Shown: positions 20,580-25,984 of the stretch, piece after piece
How positions within the stretch are numbered: the first letter of the stretch is position 1
Layout of the letters: each line of letters opens with the position of its first letter
Assembly: GCA_030603365.1 (NCBI GenBank)
Contig: JAUVXV010000008.1
Span: 1-64,000 of the forward strand
Direction: 5' to 3'
Source of the DNA: Candidatus Heimdallarchaeota archaeon
GTDB lineage: Archaea; Asgardarchaeota; Heimdallarchaeia; Heimdallarchaeales; Heimdallarchaeaceae
DNA: 64,000 nt
Translations under genes and position numbers: made by a program
Notes under the pieces: generated by a model
Seen by the model: the letters and a program-made list of their open reading frames with translations, nothing else
Database searches by the model: none
What the model was told of the DNA's origin: nothing

Positions 20580-20963
20580 ATGAAATTCCTCTGTAAAAAG
20601 TGTGATTCAAAATTTGATGAAGAATATAATGATTTATTTGAACATATTAAATGTCCAAATTGCAATCATAAGGACATTGTCTTGAACTTCATTGTACAAG
20701 GGGTTCATCCTCCAGAAGTAGGTCTTGGTATATCTTATTGGGAATTTGAGGATGTTTTAGAAGAAGGTAAAATCAACTATCTTAAGCAGTTCTTTGATGA
20801 AGAGTTCAATCTTCAGTATTCTCGAACTGGAGACGATTTTTCGTTATCTAGGAAATCTGGTCATAAAGTTGACATTAAAGAAATCTATGAAATAACACAG
20901 AAAGATGGTAAGCTCCAGAGAATAATCTACAATATTTATTACGTTCTTCTTCAAGGAAACTAA
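20580..20963 (+). CDS. Zinc-ribbon hypothetical protein
   Basis: N-terminal CKKC...CPNC. Confidence 0.6.
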   Translation: MKFLCKKCDSKFDEEYNDLFEHIKCPNCNHKDIVLNFIVQGVHPPEVGLGISYWEFEDVLEEGKINYLKQFFDEEFNLQYSRTGDDFSLSRKSGHKVDIKEIYEITQKDGKLQRIIYNIYYVLLQGN

Positions 20964-23485: not shown

Positions 23486-24217
23486 ATGAAAGATAAAAAC
23501 AAGCAAAAACGGCATTCATCAAAGAAACCTAAGCAGAAATTCCCTATAGATTCAAAGATACCAAGACAAAAATCTCCTTCTGATAAAATTCCTAAACAAC
23601 GAATTGGGGATGATAGTCTACTTCCTCCTAAAAGACAGAGATCAAGAAAAGAATCATCAGCTCCCAGTAAGTCCAGATTAAAACAAGATGAAATAAGGAA
23701 GTCTAACAAAGGAATTGAAAAAGAAAGAATAGTAACTAAGAAACCTAAAGGAGAGAGATTTGTAGATCAACCAAAACAAAGCAAAGGAATTCCAAAACAA
23801 AAAATTCCCAAAACTAAAATTCCACAACAAGATAAACTAGAGAAAACCAAGGAAAGGAATATTATTCCTGATGACAGTGAATCAAGAAAAAAAGAGAAGA
23901 AGGAATCAACACCACCAAGAAGAGAAAATTTTAGAGAGATTAAGACACTAGATTCGAAAGCCTTGGAGAAAACTGAGAGGGAAAAAAGAGAATCTTCTCC
24001 TCCTCCGTCAAACAATAAGGATCAATTTTCTGAAACTGAAAAACATGATTCAAGAACGGTTCCAAAAGAAGAGAAAGTAAGAGAGAAGAGGGAAAGAGAA
24101 GCTCCAGTTACAAGAGAAATTGAGGAAAAACCAAAACACAAACAACCAACTCAGAAGATTCCAAGCCAGAAATATCCTCAACAGACAAAAAAACCTAAAC
24201 AAAAGAAACCTAGGTAA
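23486..24217 (+). CDS. Lys/Arg/Glu/Pro-rich intrinsically disordered protein with P-x-Q-K-(I)-P repeats
   Basis: 243 aa open frame, almost no hydrophobic residues. Repeats KPKQKFP, IPRQKSP, IPKQRI, IPKQKIPKTKIPQQ, PTQKIPSQKYPQQ, KPKQKKP. Confidence 0.7.
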   Translation: MKDKNKQKRHSSKKPKQKFPIDSKIPRQKSPSDKIPKQRIGDDSLLPPKRQRSRKESSAPSKSRLKQDEIRKSNKGIEKERIVTKKPKGERFVDQPKQSKGIPKQKIPKTKIPQQDKLEKTKERNIIPDDSESRKKEKKESTPPRRENFREIKTLDSKALEKTEREKRESSPPPSNNKDQFSETEKHDSRTVPKEEKVREKREREAPVTREIEEKPKHKQPTQKIPSQKYPQQTKKPKQKKPR

Positions 24218-24239: not shown

Positions 24240-24833
24240 TCATACAAATAAAGTTAACAGAGCTGAATAGAAGTATACAATTCCAAAAATCATTAAAAAT
24301 AGATTTTCTAGATAAAACAATGTGATCAGAATATATATTGCAGGTATTATTAGCATTAATAGAAAACCAAAAAGTTTTGGGGGAATACCTTTTTCACTTG
24401 TACCTTTCATTCTTATGAATGGATATCTGATGAAAGTCCTAAATAGCAAGAAATTACTGAAGATGTAATAAGGTAAAAGGAAGAAATCAACAATTGTGAT
24501 AAAAAAATCATAAGATGAACTACCAATATTAAATGTGCTTGTTGAAATTATAGCTGAATCAAGATCATTTATTCCTAACAATATTTGTGCTAAAACGATT
24601 ATTACTGGGACTAAAGGAACTATTAATACAAAGAAAACTTCGTTGAACGTTGCATTATGTTTTAAGTAATATATACTTCTAAATGTGAAGAAAAGTGTCA
24701 AAAATGCGAAAATTGCAATAAAAATATATAACTTACCAAACTCATTGTTTTCTTCTATGAAATAGTATATAGATACACCTACCAGTGTCAGAGACACAAG
24801 AAATGCAGCAGTGAGTTGTGATATTGTTCTCAT
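24240..24833 (-). CDS. Polytopic membrane protein, RING-less paralogue of the TM domain of 24902-25984
   Basis: About 6 TMs. YYLKHNA vs HYKKHNA, and DFFITIVDFFLLPYYIF vs EFFFNLISISLLIPSIIF. Confidence 0.75.
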   Translation of the reverse strand: MRTISQLTAAFLVSLTLVGVSIYYFIEENNEFGKLYIFIAIFAFLTLFFTFRSIYYLKHNATFNEVFFVLIVPLVPVIIVLAQILLGINDLDSAIISTSTFNIGSSSYDFFITIVDFFLLPYYIFSNFLLFRTFIRYPFIRMKGTSEKGIPPKLFGFLLMLIIPAIYILITLFYLENLFLMIFGIVYFYSALLTLFV

Positions 24834-24901
24834 GTTAACACCAAGTTTCTTCAGTATGGTTCTATTTTAACTATTTTTTAAAATATTGGCATATCTTACA
24901 T

Positions 24902-25984
24902 TTATAGTTTTTCAATTATCTTCTCAATATATATTCGTATTGTAATTCGATATTTTGGATTATTAACATATCGTGTTGAGATAGGTTGATTACACCTTGC
25001 ACATAGTCTGGACTTCTGAAACCAGTTAAGAAATTCGTCTTCATGTGCAGGATATTTACAGTTAGGACATAAAATAATTTTTCTTGTATCTTTCTTATCA
25101 AAATCCATATAGCAAATTATACATTGCATCTCTTCTTTCTTAGGTGTTCCAATTGGGAACATACTTTTGCTTACTGTTGTGATTGTTTTAGTAGTCTTAG
25201 TTCTTCTTCTTGTTGTAGTAACATCTATACCTGGATCAACTCTTGCTCTTGTTGAAACGCTCCTTTGTCTATTTCTTGAAGATACGGAAACATCTCCTCT
25301 TCTCTGAGAGCTAGAAGCCCTTGAGGAAGCTGTTCGAGTAGATGCACGTCTTGTAGTTACTTTAACTTCTCTTCTTGATTTATTTATTGCAACATAAACA
25401 AAGTATCTGAATATATAGACTATATACAATATCACGAAAATAAAACAAACAAAGTCAATTTGTCCATTAATAAAGAAGCCAATTAAAAAGGTTAAAACGA
25501 TCAAACTGTGAAATAAGAAAGGAAGTGTCCTTCCTCTTTTTATTTTTCGATTTATAGCCATTCCAGGCCATTTTCCTGAATAAAAATTACTGAAGAATAT
25601 TAAGAAAATAATTGAAGGAATTAAAAGTGATATTGATATCAGGTTAAAGAAAAACTCAATAGTTCCTCCTCCTGACAGATTAGTAGTTGTCGCGAAAATT
25701 TCAGCTGCCCAAGCTTCTGGAGAGATATAATTTCCCATTAACATTACAGAGAAAGGTAAAATCAAGAATTGGCTACTGGCCAAAATAGCATTGTGTTTCT
25801 TATAATGCTGTCTTTCTAGAATATATTTGAGAGCTACAATGAAGTACAATGTAATAAAGAAAATAGTTAGAGTTACTGGTCTATCACGCTGGATAATTGC
25901 ATAAAGAGTACCTATAGTTGAACCAATAATTGCAATTGCTAAGTAAGTTTTCCAGTTATTTAATTCCAATTTTAAGCAACTCAA
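24902..25984 (-). CDS. Polytopic membrane RING-finger protein (putative E3 ligase)
   Basis: About 6 TMs, R/S/T-rich linker, then CIIC-x14-CPNC-x4-H-x2-E-x3-W-x6-CARC. Confidence 0.85.
   Translation of the reverse strand: MSCLKLELNNWKTYLAIAIIGSTIGTLYAIIQRDRPVTLTIFFITLYFIVALKYILERQHYKKHNAILASSQFLILPFSVMLMGNYISPEAWAAEIFATTTNLSGGGTIEFFFNLISISLLIPSIIFLIFFSNFYSGKWPGMAINRKIKRGRTLPFLFHSLIVLTFLIGFFINGQIDFVCFIFVILYIVYIFRYFVYVAINKSRREVKVTTRRASTRTASSRASSSQRRGDVSVSSRNRQRSVSTRARVDPGIDVTTTRRRTKTTKTITTVSKSMFPIGTPKKEEMQCIICYMDFDKKDTRKIILCPNCKYPAHEDEFLNWFQKSRLCARCNQPISTRYVNNPKYRITIRIYIEKIIEKL

Follow-up and report, generated by a model that had tools for sequence, protein, structure and literature searches.

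The 64,000-nt stretch of a Candidatus Heimdallarchaeota genome analyzed here (contig JAUVXV010000008.1, positions 1–64,000; hereafter, the window) contains a ubiquitin-like tagging cluster in which two multi-pass membrane proteins are encoded side by side, one with a RING-type finger (hereafter, TM-RING) and one without. This arrangement raises the question of whether the two proteins are copies of one membrane domain and, if they are, what part a copy with no RING would play next to a ligase. The nearest relatives of the genes at this locus come from Candidatus Heimdallarchaeota or Heimdallarchaeaceae records. Reading along the minus strand, the genes follow in the order E2, JAB, TM-RING, the 197-aa membrane protein, the ubiquitin-like protein, and E1 (Table 1), with a plus-strand low-complexity ORF between the 197-aa membrane protein and the tag. 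The TM-RING frame is open up to 25984 (first TTG, 360 aa), whereas the recorded gene call uses the second TTG, from which residues are numbered throughout.

Table 1 Features of the tagging cluster, with positions counted from the first nucleotide of the window
Feature	Position	Strand	Remarks
E1-like activating enzyme, 416 aa	21530–22780	-	PF00899, E 1.8e-56
Ubiquitin-like protein, 120 aa	22890–23252	-	Acidic N-terminal extension; ends Thr-Ala-Gly-Lys
RING-less paralogue, 197 aa	24240–24833	-	Six predicted TM helices
Spacer of 68 bp separating the TM-RING and RING-less genes	24834–24901	-	TATA-like TTTAAAAA and GGTG just 5' of the ATG (by eye)
TM-RING protein, 355 aa, TTG start	24902–25969	-	6-TM domain, disordered linker, and RING-type finger
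RING-type finger	24992–25123	-	Ligands C283-C286-C301-C304-H309-E312-C323-C326; Trp316; Asn327 at the linchpin position
S/T/R-rich disordered linker, residues 206–266	25172–25354	-	pLDDT <50
Six-TM domain of the RING protein, residues 1–197	25379–25969	-	Homologous to the 197-aa protein
JAB/MPN deubiquitinase-like protein, 240 aa	25990–26712	-	PF01398, E 5.5e-12
E2 conjugating enzyme, 176 aa	26750–27280	-	PF00179, E 6e-26

The plus-strand ORF (243 aa, 23486–24217), which is rich in K/E/R/P/Q and matches no Pfam family, is conserved at 41–73% in Heimdallarchaeaceae only and divides the cluster into two units. In most Heimdallarchaeaceae loci, E1 is followed by a zinc-ribbon protein (127 aa, 20580–20963 on the plus strand in the window) with 65–76% identity.

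An alignment made by eye in the initial annotation had suggested that the 197-aa protein and TM-RING share a TM domain. Both minus-strand reading frames and all four segment pairs quoted there were found in the sequences, and the shorter protein indeed contains neither linker nor RING. Such an alignment alone is no proof, because pairwise BLASTP of the two proteins is borderline (24% over 123 aa, E 0.004) and shallow profiles built from close relatives are not significant (HHalign: 7–9%; genome-wide HMM search: E ~10). Depth was required for significance: when homologues from three further families were added, HHalign matched the two families over 181 columns (96.3%, E 1.7e-9). Control comparisons with reversed profiles gave 0.1%, local column shuffles scored ≤43 versus 64–68 for the real profiles, and 147 unrelated multi-pass proteins or families reached ≤2% and ≤7%. 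Each single window protein also matched the profile of the other family (71% and 59%), and the single-copy Loki-type proteins, a third group, matched the RING-less and RING-bearing families at 98%. A profile of RING-less proteins only, searched against the 4.2-Mb genome of another Asgard class, had a single match, the membrane portion of the RING gene (E 4.9e-6). The 197-aa protein is thus homologous to the first ~197 aa of TM-RING, and the two are distant paralogues.

AlphaFold2 models of both proteins show an identical order of elements (helices at 6–26 and 30–58, helix 3, a beta-hairpin, helix 4, short strands, and helices 5 and 6), with pLDDT 91 and pTM 0.85 for the RING-less paralogue and pLDDT mostly >80 in the TM part of TM-RING. 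The beta-hairpin between TM3 and TM4 is acidic and predicted on the outer face in both, and Lys/Arg counts place the N-terminus, loops 2–3 and 4–5, and the C-terminus inside, with the hairpin outside. Because this bias is alike in the two proteins, the chains are predicted to run parallel rather than inverted, in agreement with a cytosolic RING. No internal repeat was found in the membrane domain, the halves of which do not align (<1%). An ESMFold2 complex prediction with alignments for the two TM domains scored 0.00, which speaks neither for nor against pairing.

Conserved residues of both proteins sit in loops 2–3 and 4–5. Those of the RING-less family cluster in two inner loops, as the cytosolic motifs A-T-[FL]-N-E (61–65) and R-x3-R-Y-x-F-I-R-x4-S-x2-G (132–149), where A61, N64, Y137, R141, and G149 are invariant and T62, E65, R132, R136, F139, I140, and S146 are nearly so; these motifs are more invariant than their counterparts in the RING copy and different from them. 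In the alignments, conserved polar residues lie mostly in cytosolic loops or at helix ends, and no conserved charge was seen in mid-membrane. The invariant residues suggest a putative cytosol-facing binding site at the inner loops of the RING-less protein rather than a pore lining. The RING-less gene is under purifying selection (dN 0.15–0.28, dS saturated) and is slightly better conserved than the TM part of TM-RING. Most widely common to both copies are Ala/Ser61, Phe68, Pro118/121, and a basic-aromatic pair after TM4. The string Y-x-K-H-N-A, earlier put forward as a family signature, fails as one, given that it occurs in only 3 of 95 Heimdall-type sequences (2/54 and 1/41) and in 0 of 20 others.

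Scans of the TM domain against Pfam, NCBIfam, and PDB sequences returned nothing consistent, and fold searches yielded nothing that exceeded background (best Foldseek E 0.28; best VIA Z 8.1, helical bundles; Atlas TM ≤0.47), which does not prove a new fold. An all-protein HMM search with a shallow alignment, which may have missed eukaryotic or bacterial relatives, produced 23 matches, none recognizably outside the family. A search for longer fusions gave only RING-length proteins (360–386 aa) among the matches listed. The searches run found no eukaryotic relative of the membrane domain, and literature searches found no published description of the TM-RING/RING-less pair. The membrane domain is a so far unclassified family, seen only in Asgard archaea in these searches.

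To describe the distribution of the domain, a pooled profile was used, which found it in about 188 of 400 Asgard genomes and not in about 210 others sampled. Outside Heimdallarchaeia, 133 genomes in eight families match, nearly all once (including Lokiarchaeum ossiferum, CR_4, Helarchaeota, Sigynarchaeota, and Borrarchaeum). All 35 non-Heimdall copies inspected carry linker and RING, 33 of them lie beside JAB, and the order is Ub-E1-E2-JAB-TM-RING wherever the flank reaches far enough. Where a genome has two matches (five cases), the additional one is another RING-bearing copy, a gene split between contigs, or noise, and a search of five closed or well-assembled non-Heimdall genomes with the RING-less profile revealed no further copy. 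The RING-less copy was found in Heimdallarchaeia only, where TM-RING is present in 51 of 83 genomes, the RING-less gene in 54, and both in 50, counts that are not independent because the genomes are kin. In the five genomes with just one of the two genes, the locus lies at a contig end or gap or the bin is 68–70% complete. Neither gene is present in 28 genomes of the class, two closed genomes among them, and these also have no operon E2. The tagging cluster is lost in some Heimdall-group lineages, and the RING-less gene is lost along with it.

Where both genes occur, they are directly adjacent and co-directional in 43 of 50 genomes from four families (Heimdallarchaeaceae, the Hodarchaeum-type family f5, f6, and part of f4), as counted from listed gene coordinates; of the other seven pairs, two are inverted and two genes away, three are unlinked, and two are undecided. 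Family f4 and G013 include at least five genomes in which the two genes are apart or inverted. The 68-bp spacer may hold a promoter of the RING-less gene itself, to judge from its TATA-like element; a sigma-70 scan, based on a model not applicable to archaea, reached chance level only. Because of these separated pairs and the possible promoter, co-transcription does not appear to be obligatory. Five near-complete Heimdall-group genomes (G015, G016 [closed], G011, G012, and G054) are without operon E2, JAB, and both TM genes and have distant paralogues only. A contig labelled Thorarchaeota (L010, JBHLQZ010000038.1) carries a Heimdallarchaeaceae-type cluster with 51–84% identity, and its label is probably a binning or naming error.

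Phylogenetic analysis placed the RING-less and the Heimdall RING-bearing copies in separate groups (support 100/97 and 100/99) with similar branching of the families. A topology holding the non-Heimdall proteins together, i.e., with a Heimdall-specific duplication, was not rejected (p-AU 0.41), and because of this a single tandem duplication at the base of Heimdallarchaeia would be the simplest account of the unrooted tree. Single-copy proteins are nevertheless closer to the Heimdall RING-bearing copy than to the RING-less copy, and an older duplication followed by losses is possible on this ground. A long branch parts the RING-less proteins from the RING-bearing copies. One divergent, long-branch RING-less member (P0114 from ENA ERZ23498360, a 912-bp contig) has a ~40-aa S/R/D-rich tail and no RING, and it looks like a truncation intermediate, a short tail being what is expected of a truncated copy. 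Inspection by eye suggested, from Asn64, that the two copies had neatly divided the ancestral conserved residues among themselves, but the pattern proved weak when counted: three residues are kept by the RING copy only, three by the RING-less copy only, four by both, and 20 by neither.

The E2 keeps HPN (83–85), Cys100, and the E3-binding loops P69-Y70 and S116-P117-A118, and the same genome encodes Cdc48 (two genes) and ESCRT-III (two genes). In 66 homologues, the C-terminus of the tag is Ser-Thr-Ala-Gly, i.e., Ala-Gly instead of Gly-Gly. Two tandem tags lie 5' of E1 in family f5 and part of f4. The linker of TM-RING is variable in sequence, yet it is kept in all lineages. The finger, with the ligand series C-C-C-C-H-E-C-C, does not match the standard sets of eight Cys/His ligands (C3HC4, C3H2C3, C4HC3), the sixth ligand being Glu, a residue able to bind zinc. 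All 69 sequences compared have both Glu312 and Trp316; at the linchpin position they carry Asn, Ser, or Asp, never Arg. Hydrophobic residues for E2 binding are kept (I284, between ligands C1 and C2, is nearly invariant and W316 is invariant), on a RING face that, like the RING-contacting E2 loops, is known from the Caldiarchaeum system (PMC5654768). The top Foldseek matches of the finger are RING/U-box domains (probability 0.93–0.99, but E 0.1–0.4), and the best sequence match is RNF24 (E 1.3e-5). Against Pfam RING models, the finger stays below cut-offs (Prok-RING_1, PF14446: 15.6 versus 29.1 bits). Its C-P-x-C-x2-P-A...E pattern resembles the C-terminal degenerate RING of the protocoatomer-type protein IFT144/WDR19 (E 0.003–0.005). 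In a Hel-type copy (L119:946–2214, minus strand; G127), the otherwise invariant Glu at ligand 6 is replaced by Ala, and the N-terminal TM region is longer. Other RING-type proteins are encoded in the genome to which the window belongs (G000; C13:153523–154902, C13:313647–314966, C16:4625–5557, and C15:414344–414913); three of these have predicted TM segments (7, 2, and 1), and the sixth ligand is Leu or other residues.

Compared to known systems, the cluster resembles archaeal ubiquitin operons in grouping tag, E1, E2, JAB, and RING, in the E2-binding Trp of the RING, and in the PY and SPA loops of the E2. The operon of Ca. Caldiarchaeum subterraneum encodes Ub, E1, E2, a small RING finger protein, and Rpn11/JAB (PMC5654768). 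Its E3 is a small soluble RING-H2 protein, whereas the 355-aa protein described here has six TM helices, a long linker, and a C4-H-E-C2 finger; the Caldiarchaeum-type tag has a C-terminal Gly-Gly in contrast to Ala-Gly, and here a RING-less paralogue follows. The E1/E2/RING cascade of Helarchaeia acts on UEV-Vps23, and the accessible part of that report describes no membrane domain for the E3 (10.1101/2023.07.25.550441), which differs from the 6-TM protein found here. The system is a variant of the archaeal ubiquitin operon with a membrane E3, an atypical finger, and an Ala-Gly tag.

Among other membrane-associated systems, bacterial membrane-linked Ubl/E1/E2/JAB/RING operons were reportedly predicted by Burroughs, Iyer and Aravind in 2011. 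Prok-RING_1 is likewise a prokaryotic RING with C-x2-C at ligands 3–4, and it is said to be tied to membranes and ubiquitin-like operons; apart from the sub-cut-off score, the TM domain here is a separate family. The RING-CH, MARCH, and Doa10 ligases share the C4-H order of ligands 1–5 and are multi-pass membrane E3s, but their RING is N-terminal, whereas it is C-terminal here with Glu as the sixth ligand; the structural match to Doa10 is limited to a 59-residue helical hairpin (Z 6.9).

The initial annotation had likened the pair to Hrd1-Der1 and to the Asi complex. This parallel holds for a RING ligase that has a non-RING membrane subunit, but not for descent, since here the putative subunit is a paralogue of the ligase's own TM domain, and the searches showed no homology to the Hrd1-Der1 or Asi proteins. 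In yeast, Asi1 and Asi3 are paralogues that both carry RINGs, and Asi2 is unrelated to them. Here, one RING gene is accompanied by one RING-less paralogue, and the comparison is an analogy only. Asi2, the non-RING subunit beside the multi-pass RING ligase of Asi1/Asi2/Asi3, binds TM domains of substrates (PMC6941229), a role that the RING-less copy might have by analogy. TM-RING resembles Hrd1 in its polytopic TM domain, disordered linker, C-terminal RING, and second non-RING membrane chain, but Der1 is a rhomboid pseudoprotease unrelated to Hrd1 (PMC13328587). There were no sequence matches to Hrd1 or Der1, the structural match to HRD1 was at noise level, the rhomboid TM-score was only 0.36, and the cluster contains no Hrd3- or Usa1-like genes.

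Based on homology, the common predicted fold, gene order, co-retention, selection, and distribution, we propose that TM-RING is the dedicated membrane-embedded RING E3 of the conserved Asgard Ub-E1-E2-JAB cluster. Its six-helix domain would lie in the cell membrane with both ends inside, and the long flexible linker would let the RING carry the charged operon E2 to lysines of membrane or membrane-near proteins. The tag carried on the E2 would be the Ala-Gly-ended ubiquitin-like protein, JAB would serve in its maturation and removal, and tagged proteins would pass to Cdc48/proteasome or ESCRT. In an ancestor of Heimdallarchaeia, tandem gene duplication would have given rise to a downstream copy that lost linker and RING. 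This copy may have become a non-catalytic subunit of the same ligase, assembled with its paralogue into a hetero-oligomer whose chains share one orientation, and its strongly conserved inner loops may help to bind substrate or a cytosolic partner.

That TM-RING is a membrane E3 for ubiquitin-like tagging, with its duplicated RING-less copy as a non-catalytic partner subunit, is the reading we favor, and we give it an even chance. Only tentatively, and with clearly less confidence, we extend it to Heimdallarchaeia as a whole (including Hodarchaeales), which would possess a two-subunit membrane ubiquitin ligase of an undescribed six-helix fold, duplicated from the single-gene Asgard E3 and selecting membrane proteins for Cdc48- or ESCRT-dependent removal. 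The idea of a two-subunit membrane ligase, already raised in the initial annotation, fits the RING/RING-less pair, its conserved linkage, and its co-retention, but the ligase occurs alone in most Asgard lineages that have it. Because those lineages (Loki-, Hel-, Sigyn-, and Borr-type genomes) have no second gene, the RING-less copy is an addition confined to one lineage rather than something that every such ligase requires.

The RING-less copy may instead serve the same pathway outside any stable complex, as a separate membrane factor such as a decoy or regulator competing for the substrate or partner of the ligase, or as a regulated substrate of the ligase. Its loss together with the cluster would suit such a factor, as would the unlinked or inverted genes of several genomes, the possible promoter of its own, and inner-loop motifs that are more invariant than, and unlike, those of the RING copy; given the direct adjacency in 43 of 50 genomes across four families and the strict one-to-one copy number, we consider this rather unlikely, although it is the alternative to be taken most seriously. 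That the copy has taken up a function unrelated to tagging, and is still found near the cluster simply because it arose there by tandem duplication, is very improbable: the long branch from the RING-bearing copies and its position away from the cluster in some genomes would be in line with this, but it is absent from all 28 genomes of the class without ligase and operon E2, the closed ones included.

Two further alternatives, both improbable in our view, concern what the membrane domain and the finger do. Two six-helix paralogues that adjoin a ubiquitin cascade in a genome with Cdc48 could form a pseudo-symmetric channel for retrotranslocation, or a transporter, much as Hrd1 and Der1 each contribute a half-channel, and residues 1–133 of the RING protein do align with HRD1 140–266 (Z 7.6, rmsd 3.5, 115 aligned), though within the noise of helical bundles. 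The conserved polar residues, however, lie away from mid-membrane, both chains have the same predicted orientation with no internal repeat (unlike inverted-repeat or dual-topology transporters), the cluster has no luminal receptor gene, and single-copy lineages would need a homo-oligomeric pore. Alternatively, the finger may bind zinc in a purely scaffolding role, like the fingers at the C-termini of IFT-A proteins, with the pair anchoring or sensing for the tagging system and another RING of the genome acting as ligase. The invariant Glu at ligand 6, the missing linchpin Arg, the motif in common with IFT144/WDR19, the scores below Pfam cut-offs, and the further RING-type proteins of the genome fit this scaffold; it is opposed by the invariant E2-binding Trp and the capacity of Glu to bind zinc, and also by gene context, as the cluster of tag, E1, E2, and JAB encodes no other RING and several Asgard classes keep this one behind E2-JAB.

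Ubiquitin cascades and a ubiquitin-binding ESCRT-I are documented in Asgard archaea (PMC9192718; 10.1101/2023.07.25.550441), and the searchable literature describes neither a membrane-embedded E3 nor ubiquitinated membrane cargo in this group. The TM-RING family offers a concrete membrane E3 candidate, which well over 150 of the Asgard genomes sampled have behind E2-JAB, and a testable one because it is present in the cultured Ca. Lokiarchaeum ossiferum, where it adjoins the E2 NEF87_002994. If the more tentative reading of a two-subunit membrane ligase throughout Heimdallarchaeia is true, the pair would be an archaeal, independently built counterpart of the quality-control ligases of ER and nuclear membranes, and it would carry out the tagging at the membrane that lies upstream in the Asgard ubiquitin-ESCRT route. 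Since the searches brought up no descendant of the TM domain in eukaryotes, the family may not be ancestral to ERAD but a side branch within Asgard archaea. With the RING-less duplicate, the class nearest to eukaryotes offers a two-gene form that can be compared naturally with the one-gene form.

A different membrane protein was seen beside a Loki-type operon (L097:2600–3391, minus strand), ~264 aa long, with about two TM segments and, at its C-terminus, a ubiquitin-like domain; equivalents are present in L083, L084, L086, L091, L093, L094, and L098. Its neighbors are a double winged-helix protein and another free tag, and in lineages that have no RING-less copy it might be a membrane-anchored Ubl partner.
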